A stretch of 64,000 nt of DNA from a virus: IMG/VR virus record IMGVR_UViG_3300043410_001708, positions 42,270-106,269 of that record. One strand, 5' to 3'. The stretch's first letter is position 1. The number at the start of each line of letters is the position of its first letter. This document shows, one piece after another, positions 4,192-16,328 of this stretch. The notes under the pieces are model-generated. The model was not told the origin of the DNA. It saw only the letters and a list, made by a program, of their open reading frames with translations, and searched no databases. A program made the translations under genes and the position numbers.

Positions 4192-4264
4192 TGGTTGCGG
4201 GTCACGGAGTTGCACCGGAACTGAGGATTATGAGCCCACTGTGATACTATTTCACCAACCCGCT
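4192..4264 (-). tRNA. tRNA-Met(CAT), initiator-like
   Basis: Cloverleaf, loop CTCATAA, 1:72 mismatch, GGG in anticodon stem, encoded CCA; atypical T loop TGCAACT. Confidence 0.75.
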
Positions 4265-4451
4265 ATATTTCTTGTTTTTTCTGACGTTGAAGATTTTGTT
4301 CTAAAATTCTGTCAAATTCTTCTTGTTCAGCTTTAGCATCTTCTATTTCTTTTGGTGATGGTTTTCTAAAAATCTTGTCGTAGTTATTAGCAAATGTTTC
4401 CTGTGAAACACTAAATGGTCTTGGACTAGAACCTTTACCACCATCAGACAT
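4263..4451 (-). CDS. Small hypothetical protein (GGKGSxPRP N-terminus)
   Basis: 62 aa ORF directly after groES. Confidence 0.65.
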   Translation of the reverse strand: MSDGGKGSSPRPFSVSQETFANNYDKIFRKPSPKEIEDAKAEQEEFDRILEQNLQRQKKQEI

Positions 4452-4453
4452 AT

Positions 4454-4699
4454 TTATTCTCCGTAGATATAAGCAATATCTTCAATCTTCACTACAAAAT
4501 AATCTTGCACTGTTACAGCTTTACCCCAATCTGGTTGCACCACATCACCAATCTGTAACTCAGTAACATCTGGTCCAACTGCAAGTACTTTTGCTCTATC
4601 AGGTTCTTCGGAGTGTCTTAGGATGATTCCTGAAGCGGTCTGTTTAACATTCTCAAGCCGTTCAATCAATACTTTATCGTGCAAGGGTTTAATATTCAT
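4454..4699 (-). CDS. groES: Co-chaperonin GroES/Cpn10
   Basis: MNIKPLHDKVLIE...TASGIIL...VLAVGP; start moved to ATG 4699 behind GAGGA. Confidence 0.9.
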   Translation of the reverse strand: MNIKPLHDKVLIERLENVKQTASGIILRHSEEPDRAKVLAVGPDVTELQIGDVVQPDWGKAVTVQDYFVVKIEDIAYIYGE

Positions 4700-4712
4700 A
4701 ATGTCCTCAAAA

Positions 4713-4779
4713 TGGAGCGGTCTTCTGCTTTGCTCAGATAACACAAGGGGGTGCCTTGTATCGTACTATTACAAACCGC
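4713..4779 (-). ncRNA. Degenerate tRNA-Gly-like RNA
   Basis: Acceptor GCGGTTT/AGACCGC-T-CCA intact; reduced D arm, non-canonical anticodon and T loops. Confidence 0.55.
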
Positions 4780-4785
4780 ATTAAA

Positions 4786-4859
4786 TGGAGCGGGATATCA
4801 GAATCGAACTGATGACGAAAGATTGGAAATCTCTAGTTTTGCCATTAAACTAATCCCGC
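4786..4859 (-). tRNA. tRNA-Gly(TCC)
   Basis: Anticodon arm AGAGA-TTTCCAA-TCTTT, TTCGATT T loop, CCA. Confidence 0.92.
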
Positions 4860-4935
4860 ATATAACTATATATGCATCATTTTAAAACACACATAATGCA
4901 TTTTAAAATGAGGACTCTTGCGAGTCCCCATACCA

Positions 4936-6363
4936 TCACAATACTTTGTAACGGTCATCCATGATGGTTTTAAGCATCACAGATTCTGGTGTAAAGGTTT
5001 CTAAGTCACCCGCCAACAGTGGTTTTACGACTGCTGGTGAGAAACCAGATACCAATGCAGTACCAGAAGTGTCGAACTTTACTGGAGCGTTGCCGTATGC
5101 GGCATTCAAGTTCCAGAATACAACCTTTGGCAAAGTGTATCCTGCTTCTTTGTACTTACGTGCAATCATCTGCATAGCAGAGTCATCATGTCTAACGCAA
5201 GCGTTAAATTGCATGTCTGACAGAATCAATACCATCGCTGGCATTTCTTCTTGTGGCACGCCACCTTTTACTGCTACATCAAGGATTTTTGCAAATGCCT
5301 TGTGTAGGTCGGTAGACATACCCCAATCAGATTTAACCATTTGGTCAATCTTTTGATTGATGTTACCTTTCAAGTGCAACAATTCTGGATTGGTAGAGAA
5401 AGTTAGGAAGGTGTCCTTGAACTTGCCTTCATTCTTATCTGCCAAGTATAGTCCCAAAGAGACTGCTACTTCCAAACAGGTTAGACCTGATTTGGAACCA
5501 TAACCACCTGCAGCGCAGGTCATTGAACCAGAAACATCCACCAAAGGTAGAATGTTTGCATCGCCAACAAAGTTAGGCAAAGCCTCCCATTGTTTTTGCA
5601 CCAAGTCCAATTCGGTCTTGTCGAATTTCATGTAACCACCGATACGGCCTTTCAGCACATCGTATGGGAACACAGCACCTGCATTAACCTTAACTTCTGG
5701 ATTATCACCCTTAACCAACGAAGCAACATATGCTGCATAAGTTGGAGTGTTACGGTTAAAAGCCTTCTTGTAACGGGATGCCGCTACGGAAGGTACGTGT
5801 GAGAAATTGATGGAATCCCAGTCTTTCGCACACATTTGAGTTTCAACCACTTTGGTCATTTCAACCAAAGACTTACGGTAAAACTTTGGGGACATACCAA
5901 AGAACTGACGGATTTCAGCCGCTAGTTTACCTTGGCGAGGAGTCCACTTTGCAGCCAATCCATTCTTCGCACGAAGCGCATCACCCAACATAGTGAATGC
6001 TGCTGACTTCATAACATCAGAATCGAATACAAAAATGTCGTCCCAACGGCCCAATTCAGGAACCTTTGTCAACAATGCTTTTGCGGCTTCTACGTCATTC
6101 TTTTCCAAATAACGCAAGATAGTACGGAACGATTCACGTTCACCGGCACCACCACGAGCATCACGTAACCAAGCAGCAACACGCAAAGCGAGTTCACGGT
6201 TTTCTGCCATTGCAGCTGCGAAAGCAGGCACAATGTTTTTGCCACGGGAAGCACCTGCATTGTAGAACAAATCTACAACTGCATTAGCAGTGGACTTACG
6301 AGCCTTCATACCGTTTGCGGTACGGGCATCTTGATTAACAACGGCATCTACAAAAGTTGACAT
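4936..6363 (-). CDS. Ro60/TROVE-like helical domain + vWA protein (DUF2828-type)
   Basis: N-terminal DLF, RDARGGAGER, GRWDD, AKWTPR motifs; C-terminal vWA MIDAS DVSGSM...STD...ILSDMQF...FWNL. Confidence 0.8.
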   Translation of the reverse strand: MSTFVDAVVNQDARTANGMKARKSTANAVVDLFYNAGASRGKNIVPAFAAAMAENRELALRVAAWLRDARGGAGERESFRTILRYLEKNDVEAAKALLTKVPELGRWDDIFVFDSDVMKSAAFTMLGDALRAKNGLAAKWTPRQGKLAAEIRQFFGMSPKFYRKSLVEMTKVVETQMCAKDWDSINFSHVPSVAASRYKKAFNRNTPTYAAYVASLVKGDNPEVKVNAGAVFPYDVLKGRIGGYMKFDKTELDLVQKQWEALPNFVGDANILPLVDVSGSMTCAAGGYGSKSGLTCLEVAVSLGLYLADKNEGKFKDTFLTFSTNPELLHLKGNINQKIDQMVKSDWGMSTDLHKAFAKILDVAVKGGVPQEEMPAMVLILSDMQFNACVRHDDSAMQMIARKYKEAGYTLPKVVFWNLNAAYGNAPVKFDTSGTALVSGFSPAVVKPLLAGDLETFTPESVMLKTIMDDRYKVL

Positions 6364-6384
6364 AACTTACTCCTCATAAAAAAA

Positions 6385-6504
6385 CAACAGAATACATTTT
6401 TTAGCGCACTACCAATTGTGCTATTCACGCCGAAGCGTAAAACAGGATTCGAACCTGTAACCTCTCCGTTATAAGCGGAAAAATTGTTTGCTGTGAGTAT
6501 TCTA
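6385..6504 (-). ncRNA. Y-RNA-like element E1 carrying a circularly permuted tRNA-Ile(UAU)
   Basis: Terminal stem AGAATAC/GTATTCT, ACAGCAA motif; inside, in order: anticodon arm, T arm, acceptor closed by UUCG, D arm. Confidence 0.8.
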
Positions 6505-6508
6505 AAAA

Positions 6509-6664
6509 CAACAGGTTAGCTTTCTACTTTTTGTTTACAGTGAGAAATCGAAACTCACCTTCGTTAGGACCATTTCAATAAACACCTTCAAAGGTCGAAA
6601 CCTCCAGTGTTTACCATAGTTACCTAACAGTTCAGTATTATTGAATAATGCTGTAACTAACCTA
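6509..6664 (-). ncRNA. Y-RNA-like element E2
   Basis: Terminal stem AGGTTAG/CTAACCT, ACAGCA motif, TGTTG tail; multi-hairpin interior with T-arm-like GTGAG-TTTCGATTT-CTCAC. Confidence 0.7.
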
Positions 6665-6692
6665 AAACCTTTTCAATCTTTCAATACTGTGT

Positions 6693-6744
6693 ATTGTAAC
6701 ACAAAAATTTGTTGTAGTCAAGCAGTATGTTGTAAACATACCAC
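6693..6744 (-). promoter_or_regulatory. Sigma70 promoter with upstream palindromic site, driving E2-E1-Ro-like gene
   Basis: TTGACT-17-TACAAT; GTTGT-N6-ACCAC at 6729-6744, 7 bp from the -35. Confidence 0.75.
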
Positions 6745-6750
6745 AATATT

Positions 6751-6824
6751 TGGTGCCCCATGACAGAATCGAACTGCCGTACCCGGATTACAAAACCGGT
6801 GTAATACCATTATACTAATAGGGC
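6751..6824 (-). tRNA. tRNA-Thr(TGT)
   Basis: Anticodon loop TTTGTAA, cloverleaf, CCA. Confidence 0.92.
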
Positions 6825-6832
6825 AAAAAACT

Positions 6833-6907
6833 TGGAGCGGGTAGTGGGAATCGAACCCACAACTAAACCTTGGCAAGGTCTTGTGTTACCACTAGCACCA
6901 TACCCGC
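6833..6907 (-). tRNA. tRNA-Gly(GCC)
   Basis: AGACC-TTGCCAA-GGTTT, CCA. Confidence 0.93.
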
Positions 6908-6916
6908 ATCATGTGT

Positions 6917-6945
6917 ATTATATATGCTTTACAAACAATTGTCAA
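6917..6945 (-). promoter_or_regulatory. Sigma70 promoter for tRNA-Gly(GCC)/Thr(TGT)
   Basis: TTGACA-17-TATAAT. Confidence 0.85.
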
Positions 6946-6965
6946 GCACATTTTTAAAAAATATT

Positions 6966-7049
6966 TGGTACGAGTAACCGGAGTCGAACCGGTACGCACA
7001 AGGCGGCAGATTTTAAGTCTGCTGGGTCTACCAATTCCCCCATACTCGC
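6966..7049 (-). tRNA. tRNA-Leu(TAA)
   Basis: GCAGA-CTTAAAA-TCTGC, long variable arm, CCA. Confidence 0.93.
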
Positions 7050-7050
7050 A

Positions 7051-7635
7051 TCACATGGCAGGTCCGTTTCCATTACGGAAACCGACCTCACCACCTTCTT
7101 CTTTGATTCGTTTCATAACATCTTCAAAAAGAATAGGACGAAAATCTGTTTGTTCAACACAAACACAATGATAACGAACATCTGGTGTGTCCAGTTCTTG
7201 ACCTCCGTTCCATGTCATCATCACACGACCTGTATGAAGGTGACCGTGAATGTTTGTTCCGAAACGACCAAGACTGGCGGGATGAATTGGAATATGTGAA
7301 AGAATCATTCCGTTCATTACATGATACGCACGAAGTTCACGGAAGTGTATTCTATATTCATCATCACGGAAGATATCGTGGTTACCACGAATAAGAACTT
7401 TATCACCGTTAAGTCTATGCATAATGCTAAGTGCTTTACGATTGATTACAACATCACCAAGATGATATACTTTATCAGTTGGCTTTACTGTTTCGTTCCA
7501 ACGCTTAACCATTTCTTCATCCATTTCATTTGGATCGGTCCATGGTCTAATCTTTTCACCTGTTATGGAGTCGGTGAATCTACACACACCAGCGTGACCA
7601 AAGTGTGTGTCACTTACTAAAAATACTGATGGCAT
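7051..7635 (-). CDS. Calcineurin-like metallophosphoesterase
   Basis: SDTHFGH, HLGD, GNHD, HGHLH motifs; start moved to MPSVFLVSD behind AGGAG. Confidence 0.9.
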   Translation of the reverse strand: MPSVFLVSDTHFGHAGVCRFTDSITGEKIRPWTDPNEMDEEMVKRWNETVKPTDKVYHLGDVVINRKALSIMHRLNGDKVLIRGNHDIFRDDEYRIHFRELRAYHVMNGMILSHIPIHPASLGRFGTNIHGHLHTGRVMMTWNGGQELDTPDVRYHCVCVEQTDFRPILFEDVMKRIKEEGGEVGFRNGNGPAM

Positions 7636-7653
7636 AATAAACTCCTGAAAAAA

Positions 7654-7728
7654 TGGCCCGGCGTGAGGGAATCGAACCCCCATTCGCACTTTAGAAGAAT
7701 GCTGTCCTATCCATTGAACGAACGCCAG
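7654..7728 (-). tRNA. tRNA-Arg(TCT)
   Basis: Loop CTTCTAA, cloverleaf, CCA. Confidence 0.9.
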
Positions 7729-7733
7729 AAAAA

Positions 7734-8174
7734 TCATACTCGGATGTATTCGTAATTAACTGTTTCTTCATTTTCTCTAAAAACAATAGCGCCGTTCTTC
7801 AAGTGAAAACGCTTTGCCATTTCAGTTTTTGGAGATAATGTCACAAATCTTTTTATGTATGGCATATTATTTTCTATGTGTGATACTGCATCAAATATAA
7901 GTGTTCCACCAGCACCTGGTGCATAACTCCATATTGTATAAAATACCGCAATCTCTGGATCGTTTACCTTTTCAAACAATTCAGATTCTTTTGTCGGAAC
8001 ATTTGTCTGATAACTTACGCATGTGATTGCTAATACTTTACCATTTGTATCCCGAAGAACAAAAATATCTTTGTTATTACCTACTCTTTCCGTAGTTGGA
8101 ATGTTAGGCCTGACAGGATCTTCATCCAATAAATTAAAAAAACTATCTGTGATGGATTTTATAATATGTAACAT
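7734..8174 (-). CDS. Small GNAT-fold protein resembling the malonyl-CoA decarboxylase catalytic domain
   Basis: AVFYTIWS, FVTLSP and RFHLKNGA recall the MCD motifs AVFYSIS, FxTLSP and RFHLxNGA. Confidence 0.6.
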   Translation of the reverse strand: MLHIIKSITDSFFNLLDEDPVRPNIPTTERVGNNKDIFVLRDTNGKVLAITCVSYQTNVPTKESELFEKVNDPEIAVFYTIWSYAPGAGGTLIFDAVSHIENNMPYIKRFVTLSPKTEMAKRFHLKNGAIVFRENEETVNYEYIRV

Positions 8175-8190
8175 GATAACTTAAATATAA

Positions 8191-8267
8191 TGGTGCCCCA
8201 GAGGAGACTCGAACTCCTAAAATTTGGTTTCTAAGACCAACACGTATACCAATTCCGTCACCGGGGC
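8191..8267 (-). tRNA. tRNA-Leu(TAG), short variable loop
   Basis: TTGGT-CTTAGAA-ACCAA, 77 nt, A73, CCA. Confidence 0.88.
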
Positions 8268-8280
8268 AATAAATACTTAT

Positions 8281-8505
8281 ATGATACCTTACGAACAAAG
8301 ACAAACAGTAAAACCACTTTATGAGTTATTCTCAAATGAAACATATGTGCCTCATGCTTATTATTGTATTGAATCTGATTTTATCGAATCATATGTTACT
8401 GAGATAAAATCTTTTAATGATGATGAAATATATATTCAACCTGAAAAAGAGTTTGTCTTAACAACATTAAAACAAGTTGGTGCTCCTACTAAGAATCGAA
8501 CTTAG
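8281..8505 (+). CDS. Hypothetical acidic protein, antisense within the tRNA array
   Basis: ATG at 8281 preceded by late-promoter-like ATAAATA; fills the gap between two tRNAs, 3' end overlaps tRNA-Thr(GGT). Confidence 0.45.
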   Translation: MIPYEQRQTVKPLYELFSNETYVPHAYYCIESDFIESYVTEIKSFNDDEIYIQPEKEFVLTTLKQVGAPTKNRT

Positions 8506-8551
8506 GATACATCCTTACCATGGATGTGGTATGCCATTTACCTATAAGAGC
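8478..8551 (-). tRNA. tRNA-Thr(GGT)
   Basis: CATCC-ATGGTAA-GGATG, CCA. Confidence 0.9.
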
Positions 8552-8556
8552 ATGAT

Positions 8557-8631
8557 TGGTGGGTCGTCAGAGAATCAAACTCTGTTCTTCCGGTTAAGAG
8601 CCGGTTGCTTCATCACTTAAGCTTACAACCC
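8557..8631 (-). tRNA. tRNA-Lys(CTT)
   Basis: CCGG-CTCTTAA-CCGG, CCA. Confidence 0.88.
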
Positions 8632-8634
8632 ATA

Positions 8635-8711
8635 TGGTACCCAAGGTGGGATTCGAGCCCACATAATCTTGCTTTTGAGACAAGCACGTATACCAATTCC
8701 GTCACTTGGGT
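8635..8711 (-). tRNA. tRNA-Leu(CAA), short variable loop
   Basis: CTTGT-CTCAAAA-GCAAG, 77 nt, same D arm as Leu(TAG), CCA. Confidence 0.88.
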
Positions 8712-8716
8712 ATATA

Positions 8717-8818
8717 CAACAGGATAGTTTTTTTACAGTGGGAATTGAACCCACAAGGTTTGCTTAGAAGGCAAATTGCGAACCATTCGCATGTGAATTT
8801 TTTGCTGAACCTATCCTA
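8717..8818 (-). ncRNA. Y-RNA-like element E3 carrying a tRNA-Arg(UCU) mimic
   Basis: Stem AGGATAG/CTATCCT, TCAGCAA; D-like arm, TTTGC-CTTCTAA-GCAAA, GTGGG-TTCAATT-CCCAC; no CCA. Confidence 0.8.
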
Positions 8819-8823
8819 AAACT

Positions 8824-8899
8824 TGGTGCTGCCTAGTAGAATCGAACTACTTTCCGAGGTTCTTCAGACCCCTGCTATGACCACATCAGCTAAAGCAGC
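8824..8899 (-). tRNA. tRNA-Phe(GAA)
   Basis: GGGGT-CTGAAGA-ACCTC, CCA. Confidence 0.92.
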
Positions 8900-8907
8900 A
8901 TATTGAA

Positions 8908-9074
8908 TTTGTAAGTATTGGGACCTCCCTCATTTCCCAACATTTTACCGGTATTTTCTGTGAAGCGGCCGACCGGTTAGAGGTACGTAGTAATAGTTGA
9001 TACTTGGCATCGGCAAAGCACTATCCTCATTCTTGTATGCCTACAAAAACTTTCTCAACATCTACACTTACAAA
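8908..9074 (-). ncRNA. Structured inter-tRNA RNA (unknown)
   Basis: 9-bp closing stem TTTGTAAGT/ACTTACAAA with internal stems GGCAT/ATGCC, ACCGGT/ACCGGT, TTGGGA/TCCCAA. Confidence 0.5.
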
Positions 9075-9077
9075 ACT

Positions 9078-9152
9078 TGGTACCTTGTGACGGGATCGAA
9101 CCGCCGACCTTCTCCTTGTAAGGGAGACACTCTACCGCTGAGTTAACAAGGC
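9078..9152 (-). tRNA. tRNA-Val(TAC)
   Basis: TCTCC-CTTACAA-GGAGA, CCA. Confidence 0.93.
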
Positions 9153-9165
9153 ATAAAATTTACTT

Positions 9166-9240
9166 TGGGGAGATATATGAGAATCGAACTCATGATAACG
9201 GAATCACAACCCGTGGTTTTGCCACTAAACTAATATCTCC
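9166..9240 (-). tRNA. tRNA-His(GTG)
   Basis: Loop TTGTGAT, G-1:C73, CCA. Confidence 0.92.
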
Positions 9241-9288
9241 CCAAAGTAAACTTTGGAATTTTTAACCGTGTTTATTCACGGGGGTCTG

Positions 9289-9777
9289 TTAGACCTGCAA
9301 AGCTTCTTGTTCTGCCAAGATTCTTTTCAATCTGTCAGCACAAAAACTTGCAGCTGGTGCGTCTGGTTTAACCATAGGTGTCATGTTACATGTACCCTTG
9401 ATATAACCAATCGCTTGTTGTACAACACATGAACTTCCGTACAAGTCATCTTTGTTTAAGTCCAAATGAACTTCAACATGGAAATCTTCTAATACATCAG
9501 CCAAGTCTTGGAACAATTCTGAAACCTTATACACTTCGGTCATTAACCGCATTGCAGGTTTACTTTTCTTATGGTCATAATCCAACTCACGTTGAACGAA
9601 ACCAAAAATCTTACAACCATGGCGGCCATCAATATGAACTACGACAGCCAAAGCATAGTCTGCATACCATACACCGTTTACACGGATACGTTCTGAGTCA
9701 GCACCCAAATATACTTTCGTATCTGGTCCTTGACTTGCAAGGAATTGCTTAACTTCTTGTATGTCGAACTTTTTCAT
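9289..9777 (-). CDS. RNase H-like YkuK-family protein
   Basis: VYLGADS, LMTEV, EVHLDLN, AASFCAD acidic motifs; start moved to MKKFDIQ. Confidence 0.75.
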   Translation of the reverse strand: MKKFDIQEVKQFLASQGPDTKVYLGADSERIRVNGVWYADYALAVVVHIDGRHGCKIFGFVQRELDYDHKKSKPAMRLMTEVYKVSELFQDLADVLEDFHVEVHLDLNKDDLYGSSCVVQQAIGYIKGTCNMTPMVKPDAPAASFCADRLKRILAEQEALQV

Positions 9778-9807
9778 ATCAATCACCTTTCTTTTTTTTA
9801 CTAACAC

Positions 9808-9881
9808 TGGCATCCCGACAGGGACTCGAACCCCGACCAACAGTTTTGGAGACTGGTATGCTGCCATTACACTATCGAGAT
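9808..9881 (-). tRNA. tRNA-Trp(CCA)
   Basis: CAGT-CTCCAAA-ACTG, G73, CCA. Confidence 0.92.
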
Positions 9882-9887
9882 ATAATA

Positions 9888-9951
9888 CAACAGGATAGAT
9901 TTTACTTTTCAAGTTACAAGTTTGAAGTATTTTATTGCTGTTACTATCCTA
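9888..9951 (-). ncRNA. Y-RNA-like element E4 (minimal)
   Basis: Stem AGGATAG/CTATCCT, ACAGCAA, single hairpin with anticodon-like loop CTTGTAA. Confidence 0.75.
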
Positions 9952-9955
9952 AAAA

Positions 9956-10029
9956 TGGTCCTCAGAACAAGAATCGAACTTGTGATGGCCGGTTATCAGC
10001 CGACTGTTATACCATTTAACTATCCGAGG
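9956..10029 (-). tRNA. tRNA-Ile(GAT)
   Basis: GTCGG-CTGATAA-CCGGC, CCA. Confidence 0.92.
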
Positions 10030-10033
10030 AATA

Positions 10034-10109
10034 TGGAGGGTCTTGAGGGATTCAAACCCCCGACCAATTGCTTCGTAGGCAACTACTCTGTTCACTGAGC
10101 TAAAGACCC
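10034..10109 (-). tRNA. tRNA-Arg(ACG)
   Basis: GTTGC-CTACGAA-GCAAT, CCA. Confidence 0.92.
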
Positions 10110-10115
10110 ATAATC

Positions 10116-10190
10116 TGGTGGTTCAGGTGAGAATCGAACTCACACAAGGCACCGTATGAAGATGCTGCACTGCCACTATGCTACTGAACC
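10116..10190 (-). tRNA. tRNA-Met(CAT), elongator-like
   Basis: GCATC-TTCATAC-GGTGC, fully paired acceptor, CCA. Confidence 0.85.
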
Positions 10191-10195
10191 AAATT

Positions 10196-10270
10196 TGGTG
10201 GACCGAGGGGGAATCGAACCCCCAACTGTGACTTGCAAGGCCACTGTGTTCCCAATTATACCATCAGCCC
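10196..10270 (-). tRNA. tRNA-Ala(TGC)
   Basis: GTGGC-CTTGCAA-GTCAC, G3:U70, CCA. Confidence 0.93.
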
Positions 10271-10326
10271 AAATTTGTTGTTGACAATTTATCTCATTAT
10301 ACGCCGTCAACAAAGGCGAGTATTAC

Positions 10327-10400
10327 TGGTCTCGGTGGCAAGAATCGAACTTGCGCCACATGCTCCCAAAGCACGGATGATACCATTTCACCACACCGAG
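10327..10400 (-). tRNA. tRNA-Pro(TGG)
   Basis: CGTGC-TTTGGGA-GCATG, CCA. Confidence 0.92.
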
Positions 10401-10406
10401 AAAATA

Positions 10407-10470
10407 CAACAGGATCGTTTTTGTCGCTAGACATCCAAAAGTTAGCTTGTTTATTGCTGAACCGATCCTA
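10407..10470 (-). ncRNA. Y-RNA-like element E5 (minimal)
   Basis: Stem AGGATCG/CGATCCT, TCAGCAA, TGTTG tail, small internal hairpin GCTA...TAGC. Confidence 0.75.
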
Positions 10471-10474
10471 AAAC

Positions 10475-10549
10475 TGGCTCCACAGGCAGGGATCGAACCT
10501 ACGACCAATTGATTAACAGTCAACTGCACTACCGCTGTGCTACTGTGGA
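10475..10549 (-). tRNA. tRNA-Asn(GTT)
   Basis: GTTGA-CTGTTAA-TCAAT, CCA. Confidence 0.93.
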
Positions 10550-10556
10550 ATATATC

Positions 10557-10631
10557 TGGCGGTCCCAAGGGGTAACGATCCCCTTCTTTATGCGTGACAG
10601 GCATACGTGCGTCCATGAACACTTTGAGACC
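10557..10631 (-). tRNA. tRNA-Asp(GTC)
   Basis: TATGC-CTGTCAC-GCATA, atypical T loop ATCGTTA, CCA. Confidence 0.88.
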
Positions 10632-10635
10632 AAAT

Positions 10636-10827
10636 ATTAGTACAAGCTACTGATTTTCCACGTCAGCCCTTGATTGAGCGGTTTCTCTGTCCATCCCTTT
10701 TATCTGGTACCTGTGTGCAGAGGGATACTGCCTATCAGAGCCTGAGTATTTCTCTCGCTAACGGTTTTCTGCCACCGGATCTCTATCGTTAATCAAACGC
10801 TACTTTAACGAAAAGTAGTAACGAGAT
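10636..10827 (-). ncRNA. Structured inter-tRNA RNA (~190 nt, unknown)
   Basis: GC-richer spacer with nested stems CTACTTT/AAAGTAG, TTGATT/AATCAA, CTCTG/CAGAG, TATCCCT/AGGGATG, GCTGA/TCAGT. Confidence 0.55.
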
Positions 10828-10828
10828 T

Positions 10829-10915
10829 TGGTGGAGACGGTGTGAGTCGAACACACAATGCCCTGAGGGCGGCGGATTTACAGTCCACTGGGGTTACCAA
10901 TTTTCCTACATCTCC
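10829..10915 (-). tRNA. tRNA-Tyr(GTA)
   Basis: GTGGA-CTGTAAA-TCCGC, long variable arm, CCA. Confidence 0.93.
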
Positions 10916-10923
10916 AAATTTTT

Positions 10924-10998
10924 TGGTAGGGGCACAGAGAATCGAACTCTGATTATCTGGTTAAAAGCCAGGTACTTTCGCCGTTAAGTTATACCCCC
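10924..10998 (-). tRNA. tRNA-Lys(TTT)
   Basis: CTGG-CTTTTAA-CCAG, CCA. Confidence 0.92.
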
Positions 10999-11004
10999 AT
11001 AATT

Positions 11005-11132
11005 TACCATTTGTTTTGCTGACGCACTATATGCTATGCTTCAACGGAATAGCTGCAGCGTTACCGTTTATTAACATAGTTACTCAGCATTGAACGTTTC
11101 TGCTGTGGCTTACATCAGCAAAACAAATGGTA
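11005..11132 (-). ncRNA. Structured spacer closed by a perfect 18-bp stem
   Basis: TACCATTTGTTTTGCTGA (11005-11022) is the exact reverse complement of 11115-11132; two internal hairpins. Confidence 0.6.
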
Positions 11133-11202
11133 CACCTAAGGAGAATCGAACTCCTCTTTCCGCCTTGAAAGGGCAGCGTCCTAACCGATAGACGATAGGT
11201 GC
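11128..11202 (-). tRNA. tRNA-Glu(TTC)
   Basis: CTGCC-CTTTCAA-GGCGG, CCA. Confidence 0.92.
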
Positions 11203-11205
11203 AAA

Positions 11206-11231
11206 AAACTACAACAAATTTTTAAAGAACA
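11206..11231 (-). promoter_or_regulatory. boxA-containing 26-nt leader repeat, copy 2
   Basis: TGTTCTTTAAAAATTTGTTGTAGTTT, identical to 12075-12100; resembles rrn boxA TGCTCTTTAACA. Confidence 0.75.
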
Positions 11232-11259
11232 TTTGATTGATTTCTCAATTCATAGATGA

Positions 11260-11311
11260 AGTATAACACAACCATGAATCTCTGTCAACCAGTGTGTTGT
11301 ATTTCTACAAC
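11260..11311 (-). promoter_or_regulatory. Sigma70 promoter with upstream palindrome
   Basis: TTGACA-17-TATACT; GTTGT-N6-ACAAC at 11296-11311, 7 bp from the -35. Confidence 0.85.
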
Positions 11312-11316
11312 GTGTT

Positions 11317-11392
11317 TGGAGTAGGTGACAGGAATCGAACCTGCATACAAGTGGTTTGCAATCACTTCCCTAGCCTTTCGGGTCACACCTAC
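11317..11392 (-). tRNA. tRNA-Cys(GCA)
   Basis: Loop TTGCAAA, U73, CCA. Confidence 0.9.
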
Positions 11393-11628
11393 ACTAATTT
11401 TTTCCTTGAACTACGGTGTGTTTCATCACGCCGCATAGTCCAATCGTAAGAGTTACCATCTGGTAACTTCTTATCTTTAACTTCATCATATCCAAACTTA
11501 CCAACGAATTCCATTTCACCATTAGTGATTGTTACGAATTCGTTAACAGTCTTGGCAAAGAACATTGCACCTGACAATGTTTCATGTTTCCATTCTTTCA
11601 ATTTTGTTTTTACTATCCACATACTCAT
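11389..11628 (-). CDS. Hypothetical protein
   Basis: 79 aa ORF filling the gap between two tRNAs. Confidence 0.6.
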   Translation of the reverse strand: MSMWIVKTKLKEWKHETLSGAMFFAKTVNEFVTITNGEMEFVGKFGYDEVKDKKLPDGNSYDWTMRRDETHRSSRKKLV

Positions 11629-11636
11629 CTTTCATT

Positions 11637-11728
11637 TGGTACCAGCGGTGAGAATCGAACTCACTCAAGAACGCTAATCTGGCGCTAAAAGGTGTATAAG
11701 ACCTCTCTGACTACCAAGTCTCGCTGGC
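11637..11728 (-). tRNA. Non-canonical tRNA with TAT anticodon (Ile/AUA) and long variable arm
   Basis: Acceptor GCCAGCG/CGCTGGT-A-CCA, mini D arm GACT-TGGT-AGTC, loop CTTATAC, variable stem, normal T arm. Confidence 0.75.
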
Positions 11729-11730
11729 AT

Positions 11731-11820
11731 TGGTGGAGAGTCAGGGAGTCGAACCCTGTGACCTACTTTCGTAAATCTACGGATTAGCAATCCGCTGCAT
11801 TACCATCCTGCCCACTCTCC
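11731..11820 (-). tRNA. tRNA-Ser(GCT)
   Basis: GCGGA-TTGCTAA-TCCGT, long variable arm, CCA. Confidence 0.92.
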
Positions 11821-11826
11821 GAATTT

Positions 11827-11916
11827 TGGTGGAAGCGGTGAGATTCGAACTCACGGACCCTTTCGGATCGGCAGTTTTCAAGACTGCTGCAATAAACCGG
11901 ACTCTGCCACACTTCC
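11827..11916 (-). tRNA. tRNA-Ser(TGA)
   Basis: GCAGT-CTTGAAA-ACTGC, long variable arm, CCA. Confidence 0.92.
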
Positions 11917-11997
11917 ATATAGAAACACACTACTGGCTATACACTCAGCGTCCCAAGTGCTACCAGAATCTAACTGGCGTAATGTGTTTTTATATGG
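11915..11997 (-). ncRNA. Structured spacer closed by an 18/19-bp stem
   Basis: 11915-11933 pairs with 11979-11997; two internal hairpins form a three-way junction. Confidence 0.55.
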
Positions 11998-12070
11998 CAG
12001 GGGTTATCAGATTCGAACTGATGATGACGATTTCAAAGACCGTTGCCTTAGGCCACTAGGCGAAACCCCA
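11995..12070 (-). tRNA. tRNA-Gln(TTG)
   Basis: ACGGT-CTTTGAA-ATCGT, G73, CCA; first tRNA of the array. Confidence 0.9.
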
Positions 12071-12074
12071 ACAT

Positions 12075-12100
12075 AAACTACAACAAATTTTTAAAGAACA
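12075..12100 (-). promoter_or_regulatory. boxA-containing 26-nt leader repeat, copy 1
   Basis: TGTTCTTTAAAAATTTGTTGTAGTTT just downstream of a promoter and upstream of the first tRNA. Confidence 0.75.
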
Positions 12101-12107
12101 AGTGTGT

Positions 12108-12158
12108 ATTGTAACAGAACCAAAGGTCCTGGCAACTACACTGTTGTATTGAAACAAC
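12108..12158 (-). promoter_or_regulatory. Sigma70-like promoter with upstream palindrome
   Basis: TTGCCA-16-TACAAT with extended -10 TG; GTTGT-N6-ACAAC at 12143-12158, 7 bp from the -35. Confidence 0.7.
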
Positions 12159-12162
12159 AAAC

Positions 12163-12196
12163 AAAAAACCCTAGTAGATTTCTCTTACTAGGGTCT
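12163..12196 (-). terminator. Intrinsic terminator (attenuator 3:4 hairpin)
   Basis: ACCCTAGTA/TACTAGGGT 9-bp stem followed by TTTTTGTTTG. Confidence 0.85.
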
Positions 12197-12227
12197 TGTG
12201 TTTGGAGTCTTTTTTAGAACTTCTGTT

Positions 12228-12341
12228 TTAGTTCTCCATCTTCACACAAAACCCGGTTGCAATCGCCCATGAGCTATCAGCGCAATTAACTGTGCGATAC
12301 TCTGGTTGCAACGTAAAGGGTTTATGAGATATGAGAGACAC
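12228..12341 (-). CDS. Putative attenuator leader peptide (37 aa, all 20 amino acids)
   Basis: GTG start after AGAAAG; MSLISHKPFTLQPEYRTVNCADSSWAIATGFCVKMEN; lies between a promoter and a terminator with overlapping alternative stems. Confidence 0.7.
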   Translation of the reverse strand: MSLISHKPFTLQPEYRTVNCADSSWAIATGFCVKMEN

Positions 12342-12371
12342 TTTTTTCTTTCTAAAATTTAATATATGTGT

Positions 12372-12400
12372 ATTATATAGGAACTTTTTAACCTCGGCAA
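12372..12400 (-). promoter_or_regulatory. Sigma70 promoter of the leader/tRNA array
   Basis: TTGCCG-17-TATAAT. Confidence 0.8.
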
Positions 12401-12413
12401 GCGGTTTTTGAAA

Positions 12414-12947
12414 TTATTTTTTGAATCCTTGAAAAAATAATTCGGGAGTATCATTTGTTTCAAACTTATAAGAATGAAACATACTATCTATATCAAAGTT
12501 AGTACGAAAATCTTCTTCTGTAAGATTCTTGTAATATTCCCAACCTTTACCGACAGTCAGTGGACTATCTTCTGGTTTTGCATTTGATGTACCATGTTCA
12601 GGTGCACCAGTTGTCGGTACAGTAATGAAAACTAATCCGTCTTTTTTGGTCATGCGATACATGTTTTGAAATGTTTCAACCCAAAATGGATTGTGTTCAA
12701 AACAATTACATGAACCTGTTGTATCGTATGTGCCGTCTGAATGGTCAACTAATTGACCCTCGCAAACTAAATCAACACTAGGTCCTTCAGCAACATCAAC
12801 GCCAGTATAATCACAGTCTTTAAAATGACTTCTCATAGTACCATTGATATCTAAACTACCAACTTCTAAAACTTTTGCGTTATTGAAGTTTTGTGGAAAT
12901 TGTTTTGACAAATTTCTAACATATTCTTGTTGTGCTGGATGTGACAT
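12414..12947 (-). CDS. Class I SAM-dependent methyltransferase
   Basis: KVLEVGS motif I, YTGVD, CFEH. Confidence 0.85.
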   Translation of the reverse strand: MSHPAQQEYVRNLSKQFPQNFNNAKVLEVGSLDINGTMRSHFKDCDYTGVDVAEGPSVDLVCEGQLVDHSDGTYDTTGSCNCFEHNPFWVETFQNMYRMTKKDGLVFITVPTTGAPEHGTSNAKPEDSPLTVGKGWEYYKNLTEEDFRTNFDIDSMFHSYKFETNDTPELFFQGFKK

Positions 12948-12950
12948 AAT

Positions 12951-13457
12951 TTATTTCTTCCATAATATTGGTGACTCAATAATTGGTGCAGACGGGTTAA
13001 CAAAATCATCAAATGTTTCCCACAAATGTTCTGATATTGCAAACTTTGTAATCAATCCTGGTTCACGGCCATAGGCATCTATCTCCCATGGTTGAATCCA
13101 ATAATCAATTTTGTCTGGATCAATTCTCTTTCCTCTCCATCGGGTCAATTCATCGTTAGTTTCACCTTCAATGTATTGTTTCACATGAACCATTTCATGT
13201 GCCAATGTTTCTAAAATCTTCCTAGAACCAATATGTGGATGAATCTCTATCAAAAATTTTCGAGGTTGATTTCGTGTATTGTAATCTTCAATACTAGCAA
13301 AACCATATTCATCTATTTTGGTACTAAAAAGGATTTGTGTGGTGCAATTGTTTCTTATTCGTGTATTGGGTATCAATTCTTTAGCATAAAAATGGGCGGC
13401 TCTTTCAACAAAGGGCTTAAAATCTTTATCCGGACAGTTAACCACACGAATAATCAT
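12951..13457 (-). CDS. Zinc metallopeptidase-like protein
   Basis: LAHEMVHVKQ HExxH motif and downstream PWEIDA. Confidence 0.8.
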   Translation of the reverse strand: MIIRVVNCPDKDFKPFVERAAHFYAKELIPNTRIRNNCTTQILFSTKIDEYGFASIEDYNTRNQPRKFLIEIHPHIGSRKILETLAHEMVHVKQYIEGETNDELTRWRGKRIDPDKIDYWIQPWEIDAYGREPGLITKFAISEHLWETFDDFVNPSAPIIESPILWKK

Positions 13458-13500
13458 CCTAGTCTCCTAAGGGCAACATTACCCTTAGTTATTTAGATGA

Positions 13501-13953
13501 TTAGATTTTTTCTACTAAAACTTTTGCCTTTTGTAAAAACTTAATACCATCATCACTCCGATAAGAGTTCCGATATAGAATGTGGTTAATACCACTTTGG
13601 TATATAAGTTTGGCACAGTCCAAACATGGAGCATGGGTAATAAACATAGTAGCACCCATACCAGATTCGTTAGACTTAGCCAACTTGGCAATGGCGTTAG
13701 TTTCTGCATGTAATACCTCCGGGCGTGTAACTAAAATATCTTTCTTTTCTACAGGCTGGCATGTTTCAGGATCCATTACATACGGATGCGTTTCACAGTT
13801 ATTGTCCCAACCAGCCGGCATACCATTGTAGCCAATAGAAATAATCCTATCTTCTTTGACTACAATGGCACCTACATGAAGTCTACGTGCTGAGGATAAT
13901 TCTGCGAACACCTCAGCAGTTTTCATATACGCATCACGAAATTTTTGTTTCAC
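13501..13953 (-). CDS. cd: dCMP deaminase
   Basis: VGAIVV, GYNG, HAE and PCLDC motifs. Confidence 0.93.
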   Translation of the reverse strand: MKQKFRDAYMKTAEVFAELSSARRLHVGAIVVKEDRIISIGYNGMPAGWDNNCETHPYVMDPETCQPVEKKDILVTRPEVLHAETNAIAKLAKSNESGMGATMFITHAPCLDCAKLIYQSGINHILYRNSYRSDDGIKFLQKAKVLVEKI

Positions 13954-14084
13954 AGGACCTCGTAATCTTCTTTACCGCAGCCACATTCAGGACAAGTAAA
14001 GTCATCAGGTAATGTATTCCATGCACCCTCTGTTGCTTCATCATGTTCATGTCCACAAACTACACATACGTGTACTTCACTCAT
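13950..14084 (-). CDS. Rubredoxin (44 aa), not in ORF track
   Basis: MSEVHVCVVCGHEHDEATEGAWNTLPDDFTCPECGCGKEDYEVL with two CxxCG motifs. Confidence 0.92.
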   Translation of the reverse strand: MSEVHVCVVCGHEHDEATEGAWNTLPDDFTCPECGCGKEDYEVL

Positions 14085-14533
14085 TATAGTTCTCCTAATT
14101 TTTGTTGATATGCAGCTGCATGACGTTTTTCAATTTTGGATAATGCAGCAAAACGTTTTTCTGCCTTACGTAGGATATCAGAAAATTGTTCTGCGTGTAT
14201 TTTTGATTCTTCAATTTGATGGCGAGCTTCCAATGAGGCAGATAAATTGCCTTCTGTTTTTGCATCAATTTCAAATTGTGGATACATTGTAGTGAATTCG
14301 TATGTCTCACCTTCAATGGCTTTCTCCAAACATTCTTTAGTTGATGGTTTACCAATTAACAATTCCAAATGACCCCATGCATGAAGTAACTCTTGGTCTG
14401 CTGTATGTTCAAAGTGTTTTGCAACATCTTCAAAACCTTCTTCTCGAGCAATCTTCGCAAAGTAACGATATTTGATATGTGCTTGACTTTCTCCAGCCAA
14501 GGCACTCTCAAGGTTTTTAATTGTAATTGACAT
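14084..14533 (-). CDS. rbr: Rubrerythrin (short-chain, ferritin-like)
   Basis: NLESALAGES, QELLHA, GETYE, EESKIHA di-iron motifs; start moved to MSITIKN. Confidence 0.9.
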   Translation of the reverse strand: MSITIKNLESALAGESQAHIKYRYFAKIAREEGFEDVAKHFEHTADQELLHAWGHLELLIGKPSTKECLEKAIEGETYEFTTMYPQFEIDAKTEGNLSASLEARHQIEESKIHAEQFSDILRKAEKRFAALSKIEKRHAAAYQQKLGEL

Positions 14534-14551
14534 AATACTCCTTAATAAAAA

Positions 14552-14626
14552 TGGTGGGCCCACTAGGAATTGAACCTAGACTCAATGAATTATGAGTTCA
14601 CTGCTTTACCATTAAGCTATAGGCCC
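14552..14626 (-). tRNA. tRNA-Ile2(CAT), lysidine type
   Basis: GGGCCTA acceptor, GTGAA-CTCATAA-TTCAT, CCA. Confidence 0.8.
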
Positions 14627-14808
14627 TATTTGATATATTCTAACGAATCTTTTCTCATTAATTTAGGTGTTTCCCTAATACCAATGTTTTTAATTACGTA
14701 AACGAAAGTAACACCATCAATTTCTTTAGTCTCTGGTGAACAGACGTAGTAATTCTCCATCGTGGTTTTTACACGAACTTTTTTGATGTATTGTTTTTCA
14801 GTTTTCAT
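14626..14808 (-). CDS. Hypothetical protein
   Basis: Basic 60 aa ORF directly behind the TTGACA-17-TATAAT promoter at 14815-14843. Confidence 0.55.
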   Translation of the reverse strand: MKTEKQYIKKVRVKTTMENYYVCSPETKEIDGVTFVYVIKNIGIRETPKLMRKDSLEYIK

Positions 14809-14825
14809 AATACTATTATAAAGGT

Positions 14826-14853
14826 AAAAAAAGAGGTTGTCAAGCAACCTCTT
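14826..14853 (-). terminator. Intrinsic terminator after the hsp20 unit
   Basis: AAGAGGTTG/CAACCTCTT stem plus T run; overlaps the next promoter's -35. Confidence 0.75.
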
Positions 14854-14858
14854 TACTA

Positions 14859-14924
14859 TTACCGGAACTTTTCAGGATAATTTAGTCGTTCCCACTCCTC
14901 ATCGGAGACAGGCCACCAATTCAT
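14859..14924 (-). CDS. 21-aa peptide coupled to hsp20
   Basis: ATGA overlap with the hsp20 stop; MNWWPVSDEEWERLNYPEKFR. Confidence 0.45.
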   Translation of the reverse strand: MNWWPVSDEEWERLNYPEKFR

Positions 14925-15367
14925 TCTTTTTCCTTAATAGCAATTTTCTTAATGGCGTCTTGTGTTTTGACCATATTTTCTAGCCAAATTTTAAGCATAC
15001 CATTCATTAGTTCCGCATCTTTGATTTCTACTTTATCTGCGAGAGTAAAGGTACGTTCAAATGCACGGTTGGCAATGCCTTTGTACAGATAATCTTCAGA
15101 TTCATCATCTTTAGATGCAGCTTTAATTACAAGTTTGTTTCCTTCCAAAGTCATTTCAATATCAGACTTAGCAAAACCAGCAACAGCCATTTCAATGACG
15201 TACTTGTTTTCTTTTACCTGTTTGATGTTGTATGGAGGATAAGATACGGCTTTAGTTGCAGCCGTTGCAGCTTCACGCATAAGTTCCAATGTATCATTGA
15301 ATCCTACTGTGAATGGTTGAATTTTACCAAAATCAGAACCGAAAAAATCTTTCATAAGATTTGTCAT
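14921..15367 (-). CDS. hsp20: Small heat-shock protein Hsp20 (IbpA-like)
   Basis: YPPYNI, IEMAVAGF, YKGIANRAFERTF, NGML motifs. Confidence 0.95.
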   Translation of the reverse strand: MTNLMKDFFGSDFGKIQPFTVGFNDTLELMREAATAATKAVSYPPYNIKQVKENKYVIEMAVAGFAKSDIEMTLEGNKLVIKAASKDDESEDYLYKGIANRAFERTFTLADKVEIKDAELMNGMLKIWLENMVKTQDAIKKIAIKEKE

Positions 15368-15518
15368 GTGTTTCTCCTAAAAGCGAGATTAAAAAATTGA
15401 TACCCCGAAGGCGTATCGGTTGAGTTACTGGTTACGGGATCCAGTGTCACCCTATCGTTGTGACCGCTTTAAACGCTCCTAAGGTAGGTGGAGCACCTTC
15501 TTCCCATCCCTGGGAACT
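15368..15518 (-). promoter_or_regulatory. Structured hsp20 5' leader ending in a ROSE-like thermometer hairpin
   Basis: TCTCGCT-TTT-AGGAGA sequesters the SD with a bulged G (UCGCU); five upstream hairpins; promoter TTGACA-17-TATAAT at 15520-15548. Confidence 0.65.
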
Positions 15519-15544
15519 TATTATATCAGTATTTATACTAGTTG

Positions 15545-15952
15545 TCAAGAACCGTTCGGTTTTTTACCAATATTATACTTTGGTGTAAGTTGCCAGTCAT
15601 TCTTTTCCTTGTGTGACAATATTTTAATCTGTGACAAGAAAATAGGTGCTGGCACCTCAGTTTGTTTTTTGTTGACCAACTTTACTAAACCCCAATCTTC
15701 CAATAGGTTTGCAATAGCATTCCTACGTGATAGGTCATTTTCGGTAATGTCGGTTGGTTTACCATCTAAGGCAAATAGTTCTTTGAAATGTACCACATAG
15801 TATTGTCCACGTTTGTGGAGAATGTGGCAAGATTGGTATAATGTTTGGTCTTTCTTTGAGGCAACACCGATACGGGTCAGTGTTTCACGTACCTTTAGAA
15901 AATCATCTTTGTCATCCAATGTCACTTCAACTAAGTCTTTAATGTCTATCAT
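15545..15952 (-). CDS. regA: Translational repressor RegA
   Basis: DFLKVRETLTRIG, LYQSCHILHKRG.YY.VHFKELF. Confidence 0.97.
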   Translation of the reverse strand: MIDIKDLVEVTLDDKDDFLKVRETLTRIGVASKKDQTLYQSCHILHKRGQYYVVHFKELFALDGKPTDITENDLSRRNAIANLLEDWGLVKLVNKKQTEVPAPIFLSQIKILSHKEKNDWQLTPKYNIGKKPNGS

Positions 15953-16328
15953 TATTCTTCACTCCGCCTGTATCTATTTTTGTTTTTATATCAGCGATTT
16001 GTTCATCGGTGAGGATACGTAGGGCTTCTTTAGCCTTGGAGTTTGAATACCCAAAATAGGTTTTCACACATTCAATATCCTTCTCAGAATCAGCTTTTTG
16101 CCATGGAACGAATTTACGTTTCATAGGCCTGATACTATTTAGAAGATACTGGTATTGCATGTCCTTATCGATTCCAGGCCACAGGTTCATGTCATTGGCG
16201 TACAAGACACAATCTAAATGGTTGGACAACGACCTATTGATTAGGAAAGGTGCATAATCTTTGAAGTCCAATTCACCATCCGGCACCTTCTTTCTCAGGA
16301 TGTAATCGGCATAATCGAACGGACTCAT
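15939..16328 (-). CDS. gp62: Clamp loader small subunit
   Basis: Y.PFLINRSLS motif; position between gp44 and regA. Confidence 0.92.
   Translation of the reverse strand: MSPFDYADYILRKKVPDGELDFKDYAPFLINRSLSNHLDCVLYANDMNLWPGIDKDMQYQYLLNSIRPMKRKFVPWQKADSEKDIECVKTYFGYSNSKAKEALRILTDEQIADIKTKIDTGGVKNNDRH

Follow-up and report, generated by a model that had tools for sequence, protein, structure and literature searches.

A candidate leader-peptide transcription attenuator ahead of the tRNA genes of T4-like phages

Introduction

Why phages carry large arrays of transfer RNA (tRNA) genes is a long-standing question, and the regulation of these arrays is largely unknown. We analyzed a 64,000-nucleotide (nt) stretch of viral DNA (the window; positions 42,270 to 106,269 of the 106-kb IMG/VR record IMGVR_UViG_3300043410_001708), in which a short open reading frame (ORF) with its own promoter and intrinsic terminator stands at the head of such an array. 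An earlier note, made from the letters alone, had proposed that this ORF encodes a leader peptide containing all 20 amino acids, and that its translation gates the tRNA genes by attenuation. Here, we describe the element and its relatives, and suggest that it is probably a ribosome-mediated transcription attenuator.

Results

Organization of the locus and the leader ORF

The source phage is uncultured and comes from freshwater. It is T4-like, with capsid, portal, sheath and clamp-loader proteins of T4 type, and its closest cultured relatives by capsid protein (62-65% identity) are Methylophilales phage Melnitz, Pelagibacter phage Mosig and Stenotrophomonas phage DLP_6. Read along the minus strand, the locus comprises a methyltransferase gene, the promoter P1, the sequence AGAAAG, the GTG-started ORF, a spacer of ~34 nt, a terminator, a second promoter (P2) and tRNA-Gln, in that order (Table 1). 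P1 matches the sigma-70 consensus at 10 of 12 positions, and transcription from it would start near position 12365.

The leader ORF encodes all 20 amino acids and uses 33 distinct codons in its 36 elongation positions. A script and a direct reading of the sequence agree with the earlier note on these counts, as on P1, the GTG start, the 37 codons and the terminator. By codon 25, 19 amino-acid types have been reached if the start Met is counted, one more than the 18 given before. The GC-ending codons that had been named as scarce in the phage are so, at 1.3-1.9 per 1000 for four of them (CTC 1.7, CCC 1.3, CGC 1.9, GGG 1.5). The leader as a whole is enriched in rare codons; its score of the codon adaptation index (CAI) type is 0.43, and that of gene windows is 0.69 (P = 8e-4).

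This diversity is well above chance. When the bases of the leader are shuffled and stop-free frames kept, 0.3% of the shuffles give all 20 amino acids and 1.2e-4 (0.012%) give all 20 together with at least 33 codons. Base composition as the sole cause is thus ruled out. Among the 30,996 stop-free 36-codon windows of the 64 kb, a single one has at least 33 codons, and it is the leader ORF. Real protein windows of the phage, 36-37 residues long, contain all 20 amino acids at a rate of about 1e-3. One such ORF among the ~280 short ORFs of the window is only mildly surprising, and it is the comparative evidence that is decisive.

Table 1. Features of the candidate attenuator element and its surroundings (window coordinates)
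Feature	Position	Strand	Description
Methyltransferase gene	12947-12414	-	Pfam Methyltransf_23; next gene 5' of the element
Promoter P1	12372-12400	-	sigma-70; -35 TTGCCG 12400-12395, 17-nt spacer, -10 TATAAT 12377-12372
Shine-Dalgarno-like AGAAAG	12348-12353	-	weak; 6 nt before GTG
Leader ORF	12228-12341	-	GTG start, 37 codons plus stop
Mid-ORF hairpin	12271-12302	-	UAUC/GAUA core from Tyr and Asp codons
Segment 2 (putative antiterminator 5' strand)	12234-12254	-	core 12254-12244, extension 12238-12234; within the last 8 sense codons
Segment 3 (putative antiterminator 3' strand)	12191-12207	-	core partner 12201-12191; 12194-12191 also begin the terminator 5' arm
Intrinsic terminator	12163-12194	-	9-bp stem 12194-12186/12176-12168, 9-nt loop, U6 tract to 12163
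Promoter P2	12108-12135	-	TTGCCA-16-TACAAT, extended -10; between terminator and tRNA-Gln; bypasses the attenuator
tRNA-Gln, first of array	12070-11995	-
tRNA array	4786-12070	-	ARAGORN: 27 tRNAs, all 20 amino acids; 3' of the element

A family of elements heading tRNA arrays

Relatives were sought by using the upstream methyltransferase as an anchor, and then by two DNA pattern scans of IMG/VR. One scan used both strands of the putative antiterminator and the other, independent of it, used two blocks within the ORF; matches were confirmed by nhmmer. The element was recovered in about 120 contigs, which represent 82 unique sequences. A tRNA array follows it in every locus that has downstream sequence, while the gene upstream differs between loci. 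P1 is kept in nearly all of the aligned relatives, as TTGCCA or TTGACA, a 17-nt spacer and TATAAT.

Two layouts are seen. In the main one, which includes the window and most contigs, P2 and a conserved leader sequence separate the terminator from tRNA-Gln, which starts 93-124 nt downstream. A further promoter past the terminator had been pointed out before, and P2 is present in every relative of the window's type. It is absent where a tRNA directly abuts the terminator. This is the second layout, found in 12 loci from two lineages, in which the first tRNA lies 9-21 nt past the start of the U tract. Since so short a distance leaves no room for a promoter, P1 is the only visible promoter of the array in these 12 loci.

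Two further features lie around P2. A small palindrome, GTTGT-N6-ACAAC, separates the terminator from P2 at 12143-12158 on the minus strand. It shows covariation among relatives, as in GGTGTT...AACACC, and could be an operator or a second hairpin. The conserved leader after P2 resembles an rrn boxA.

Coding signature of the ORF

The leader frame is open in all 65 unique coding sequences, so the ORF is conserved upstream of related tRNA arrays, as the earlier note would have it. The other two forward frames are open in 3 and 0 of the 65, and the reverse frames in 0, 9 and 1. Lengths among the relatives range from 30 to 45 codons, and the indels between clades (24, 3, 3 and 6 nt) are all in frame. 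The second codon position has the lowest entropy and the third the highest, both in clade A (15.3, 11.0 and 21.6 for positions 1, 2 and 3) and in clade B (3.4, 2.7 and 7.6), and the ratio of nonsynonymous to synonymous variation (pN/pS) is about 0.46. The start signals are swapped between clades and never lost. In some clades GTG, TTG or ATG stands 5-8 nt after GAAAG, AGGAA or GGAG. A start was assigned in 73 elements, and 35 of these have a leaderless ATG exactly 6 nt after TATAAT. By this comparative signature, the ORF is a conserved frame that appears to be translated.

The terminator and a competing helix

The terminators of the relatives have 14 different 5' arms, every one with a matching 3' arm, and compensatory pairs are seen. 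Their stabilities range from -7.8 to -12 kcal/mol and their tracts from U5 to U8. The leader RNA also folds better than shuffled sequences (z = -5.8).

A second helix can form between the end of the ORF (segment 2) and a stretch that runs into the 5' arm of the terminator (segment 3). In the window this duplex has a predicted energy of -22.7 kcal/mol. Across the family, the mean energy is -19.2 kcal/mol for cognate duplexes and -15.5 kcal/mol for non-cognate ones, a difference matched by none of 10,000 permutations. In independently found relatives both strands differ from those of the window and complementarity is kept. In an alignment of 54 sequences (A2; columns 147-157 with 213-223), 93.2% of the cells are paired, versus 86.7% in shuffles (0/500 as high). 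Double-change cells number 27 versus 7.1 expected (0/500) and further pair types 11 versus 8.3 (1/500), with compensatory pairs at 4 positions. As a control, sliding the partner columns by 1-3 positions lowers the score from 0.206 to 0.112 or less. The covariation that the earlier note had asked of both stems is thus found, in the double changes of the one and the 14 matched arms of the other.

The covarying columns 219-223 of A2 also belong to the terminator arm, and in every class the same columns of segment 3 pair both with segment 2 and with the 3' arm of the terminator. Segment 2 therefore competes with that arm. Such competition is the defining trait of an antiterminator and, on this comparative evidence, the helix is one. 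The stop codon lies 0-21 nt past segment 2 and, in all but two elements, 28-37 nt from the terminator stem. This spacing fits a ribosome that is required to keep pace with the polymerase.

A mid-ORF hairpin

Another hairpin lies within the ORF. Its core is kept in 45 of 45 sequences (RNAalifold; helix 5 is 91% paired), and its nucleotides are invariant, synonymous sites included. We suggest that it is possibly a pause hairpin for RNA polymerase.

Ribosome position and the predicted fold

The effect of a ribosome was modeled in 14 representatives by placing it at each codon and folding, at equilibrium, only the RNA downstream of it. With the ribosome stalled in roughly the first two-thirds of the ORF, the probability of the terminator falls below 0.5 in 11 of the 14. 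With the ribosome placed in the final third, or at the stop codon, that probability is 1.0 in all 14. The claim that a stall at almost any codon frees segment 2 thus holds in the model, in most representatives, for roughly the first two-thirds of the ORF; it does not extend to all 20 amino acids, since that part contains 16-19 of them. In the absence of a ribosome, the variants with a leader before the start codon favor the terminator, and the leaderless variants are predicted to favor or tolerate the antiterminator (terminator probability 0.08-0.5 in most).

Amino-acid content of the leader peptides

Sixty-six unique leader peptides of 30-45 residues were compared. The complete set of 20 amino acids is present in 46, where 0.06 would be expected from the phage's own amino-acid frequencies. 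At least 19 types are present in 57 of the 66, and of the six 31-residue variants five have the full set. Trp occurs in 100% of the leaders against 34% expected, Cys in 95% against 22% and His in 94% against 36%. The composition is flattened towards uniform, with Ala, Gly and Val depleted. Between lineages Cys takes six different alignment columns and His seven. Since their presence is kept while their position shifts, selection appears to act on composition rather than on a fixed peptide. By comparison across the family, the near-complete set of amino acids is a family trait and not an accident of the copy in the window.

Other features of the locus and of related phages

On the 5' side of the element, a class I methyltransferase, a deoxycytidine monophosphate (dCMP)/cytidine deaminase and a rubrerythrin-like protein are encoded between 12414 and 14563 on the minus strand, and an isolated tRNA-Met lies at 14552-14626. 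The Rfam tRNA model finds three more tRNA-like elements that ARAGORN did not report, at 8560-8631, 8730-8798 and 4195-4264 on the minus strand (49.7, 35.8 and 33.4 bits). The tRNA-Ile(UAU) at 11637-11728 (minus strand) has a long variable arm, and its best model is tRNA-Sec, at 32.6 bits and under the cut-off. Codon 4 of the leader is the rare ATA, the codon that this tRNA would read.

Within the tRNA region, a sub-threshold Rfam match to the Y-RNA-like YrlA (6378-6490, minus strand; 36.5 bits, where the gathering score is 69; E = 4.8e-5) lies directly upstream of an ORF for a DUF2828/DUF7788 protein (4936-6363, minus strand). The two may be a phage pair of Ro-like protein and Y RNA.

No cultured carrier of the element was found when three family members were compared by blastn with 50,697 phage records; the searches returned tRNA matches only or nothing. 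The head of the DLP_6 array (KU682439.2, ~103.1 kb), where an annotated coding sequence of 56 residues abuts tRNA-Pro, was considered and rejected. It is a different element, since it has no clear terminator and a permuted transfer-messenger RNA (tmRNA) lies upstream. This apparent two-piece tmRNA (545-760 of locus L214, ~102.85-103.06 kb of KU682439.2) stands just before the array of 37 tRNAs, and many small annotated coding sequences of DLP_6 end 7-10 nt ahead of a tRNA gene. A tmRNA with the tag peptide ANAANDEVYALAA is also seen in two more distant relatives, L025 (4208-4601) and L026 (6210-6603), where the methyltransferase is located inside the tRNA array.

Discussion

We suggest that the element is a ribosome-mediated, leader-peptide transcription attenuator that heads the phage tRNA array, and put the probability of this at roughly 60%. 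That translation controls termination, and in which direction, we infer from the folding model and by analogy with attenuators of the trp type. Host RNA polymerase would begin at P1 and transcribe the 30-45-codon ORF. Segment 2, the last codons of the ORF, and segment 3, which overlaps the 5' arm of the terminator ~30 nt past the stop, would be the two strands of the antiterminator. A ribosome that keeps pace, and is on segment 2 or on the stop codon as segment 3 emerges, would let the terminator form and give an RNA of ~200 nt. If the ribosome is late, having initiated poorly or stalled within the first two-thirds of the ORF, pairing of segments 2 and 3 would keep the terminator from forming and the tRNA genes would be read. 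Because the leader has nearly all amino acids and many rare codons, slow decoding of almost any codon would increase read-through. The unit would report in a general way on how fast translation runs or how much charged tRNA is available, feeding back on the synthesis of phage tRNAs. Such broad sensing of translation speed is likely.

The deliberate sensing of all 20 amino acids is plausible. Whether the leader has been selected as a near-pangram, so that the shortage, uncharging or cleavage of almost any tRNA stalls the ribosome and de-represses the phage tRNA set (a 19-20-valent attenuator), is a more tentative matter; we regard it as possible and short of probable. A link of the element to host anticodon nucleases or other tRNA-cleaving defenses would be purely conjectural.

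Several observations weigh against the proposal, some against attenuation and others against the broad sensing. In the window's clade the conserved P2 sits past the terminator, which makes the array independent of read-through. With this promoter placed ahead of the first tRNA, the attenuator can be no more than one, auxiliary, input to the array in this clade. The Shine-Dalgarno-like sequence of the window copy is weak, and so is the modeled antiterminator in three of the 14 representatives. The relatives share descent, so that counts across variants are not independent. Completeness is not strictly kept, as 20 of the 66 variants are without one to three amino-acid types, and only 23% of the variants have an elongator Met. 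In the part of the ORF where a stall should matter there are 16-19 types, with per-sequence p values of only 0.0001-0.27, and in the window that part is without Gly and elongator Met. In a clade with reduced arrays of 12-14 tRNAs, the leader has 17-18 amino-acid types, and its overlap with the amino acids of the tRNAs is that of chance (12 versus 11.9 expected, hypergeometric); we dropped it as evidence.

The pairing within the ORF (1:2) also counts on this side. The earlier note had described three mutually exclusive pairings in the geometry of the trp, his and thr attenuators. The ORF, the terminator (3:4) and the antiterminator (2:3) of that scheme stand, and both helices covary, but the 1:2 anti-antiterminator is not supported. 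It is the minimum-free-energy fold of the window, yet it has no cognate advantage across the family (-11.03 versus -10.95 kcal/mol, P = 0.37) and no covariation in 45 sequences (0.088 versus 0.087, with 192 of 500 shuffles as high). It is also missing from the leaderless variants. For these reasons, the switch is better described as two-state, in which the antiterminator would form unless a ribosome sits on it.

Three other explanations have to be weighed. The first is an independent gene for a small protein, in which the 30-45-residue peptide is the product, the 3' helix tunes mRNA stability or translation, and the adjacency to tRNAs reflects modular co-inheritance. The peptide is under purifying selection (pN/pS about 0.46), its alignment has conserved residues, and the tRNAs of the window's clade own a promoter, P2. 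All this would suit such a gene. However, the strand of segment 2 covaries with nucleotides of the terminator arm, which points to a switch over a static 3' structure, and in the 12 loci where a tRNA follows 9-21 nt past the start of the U tract only P1 is visible as a promoter. The codons of the most conserved residues, Tyr and Asp, make up the two arms of an RNA stem and do not vary even at synonymous sites, and the rare amino acids move yet persist, a behavior unusual in a peptide that folds or binds. We therefore regard a small-protein gene as unlikely.

Somewhat less probable still is an arrest-peptide attenuator, in which a conserved motif in the nascent chain stalls the ribosome when it meets one particular ligand, antibiotic or factor. 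This stall would then determine read-through, and the signal would be something other than general tRNA supply. Leaders of this kind are known, such as TnaC and SpeFL. A core of Glu-Tyr-Arg-Thr, followed by Asp and then Ser-Trp, is kept in all clades, and Ser-Trp is located where the leading edge of a stalled ribosome would reach segment 2. Against this, the core is invariant in its nucleotides, four-fold degenerate sites included, and forms the conserved hairpin, so that its conservation as peptide may be a by-product. Clade B and locus L081 alter much of the motif and retain the switch, and the flattened amino-acid composition would be left unexplained.

Least probable, and very improbable in our view, is a non-coding RNA switch or small RNA, in which the choice is made in trans, by a protein or by an uncharged tRNA in the manner of a T-box, and the open frame is incidental: the strong fold (z = -5.8), the promoter and terminator unit of about 200 nt, the invariant nucleotide blocks and a conserved CAUGG that could, speculatively, pair with the 3' end of a tRNA would suit it, but the frame is open in 65 of 65 sequences, varies at third positions, has indels that are all in frame and keeps its start signals, there is no Rfam match, T-box included, at E up to 1, and the unit carries a clear coding signature where a stand-alone small RNA gene would be free of coding constraint.

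The attenuator that we propose resembles in its arrangement the leaders of enterobacterial amino-acid operons (trpL, hisL, leuL, pheL and thrL), among them the multivalent ones of ilvGMEDA and thr. A short, apparently translated ORF lies close to a promoter and is followed by an intrinsic terminator, and the terminator's 5' arm overlaps with the antiterminator's 3' strand. In these enterobacterial systems, as in our model, a ribosome at the end of the ORF leads to termination and a delayed ribosome to read-through. There are also clear differences. The enterobacterial leaders have a run of regulatory codons, whereas the leaders here sample 17-20 amino-acid types and many rare codons. The antiterminator has its 5' strand within the ORF, a conserved 1:2 anti-antiterminator is lacking, and about half of the variants are leaderless. 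Downstream are phage tRNAs instead of biosynthetic enzymes. When 4000-16000 of the window was searched by cmscan at E up to 1, no Rfam model matched within 12160-12400, including RF00513, RF00514, RF00512, RF00506 and RF00230.

Other attenuators also use a short ORF to report the progress of the ribosome to an RNA switch. The leaders of ermC, cat, vmlR and the lmo0919 type have specific arrest motifs, and in pyrBI the ORF runs into the terminator. The antibiotic-resistance and pyrBI leaders share with our proposal a response to a general slowing of translation and not to one amino acid. In pyrBI close coupling prevents termination, so that its sign is opposite to that of our model. To our knowledge, none of these attenuators controls tRNA genes. 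T-box leaders likewise sense tRNA charging and choose between terminator and antiterminator. They are untranslated, however, and bind one tRNA through a specifier codon, with a conserved Stem I and T-box sequence, whereas the element here is clearly coding by its comparative signature and has no match to RF00230.

The nearest published functional analogue is the trn operon of Anabaena sp. PCC 7120, a long tRNA array that is induced under translational stress (PMC8421152, PMC10272220). Its physiological logic is that of our model, in that impaired translation turns on an accessory array of tRNA genes. Its control is exerted by the repressor TrcR bound to direct repeats in the promoter (PMC8421152, PMC10272220), unlike the leader ORF with a terminator/antiterminator switch described here, and attenuation, a leader or a terminator is not mentioned for it (PMC8421152). 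It is thus not prior art for the mechanism. In full-text literature searches we found no published account of a leader-peptide attenuator ahead of tRNA genes. Very probably, then, this is a known mechanism, attenuation, with a new target, the tRNA genes, and a new leader logic in which maximal codon diversity takes the place of a single-codon run.

If the proposal holds, classical attenuation would gain a new regulatory target, through a sensor of translation speed wired directly to the transcription of tRNAs. The idea that the tRNAs of phages make up for host tRNAs destroyed by defense nucleases has been published (PMC10264068). The element would make such a role of phage tRNAs testable, be it the offsetting of codon mismatch or of tRNA loss caused by defense. 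The element is small, its promoter is of the sigma-70 type and its terminator intrinsic, and it should be transferable to reporters in E. coli. As a naturally evolved, general sensor of translation stress, it could serve as a genetic part. Should the leader prove to be a near-pangram by selection, it would give these phages an automatic counter to host anticodon-nuclease defenses and to codon mismatch.

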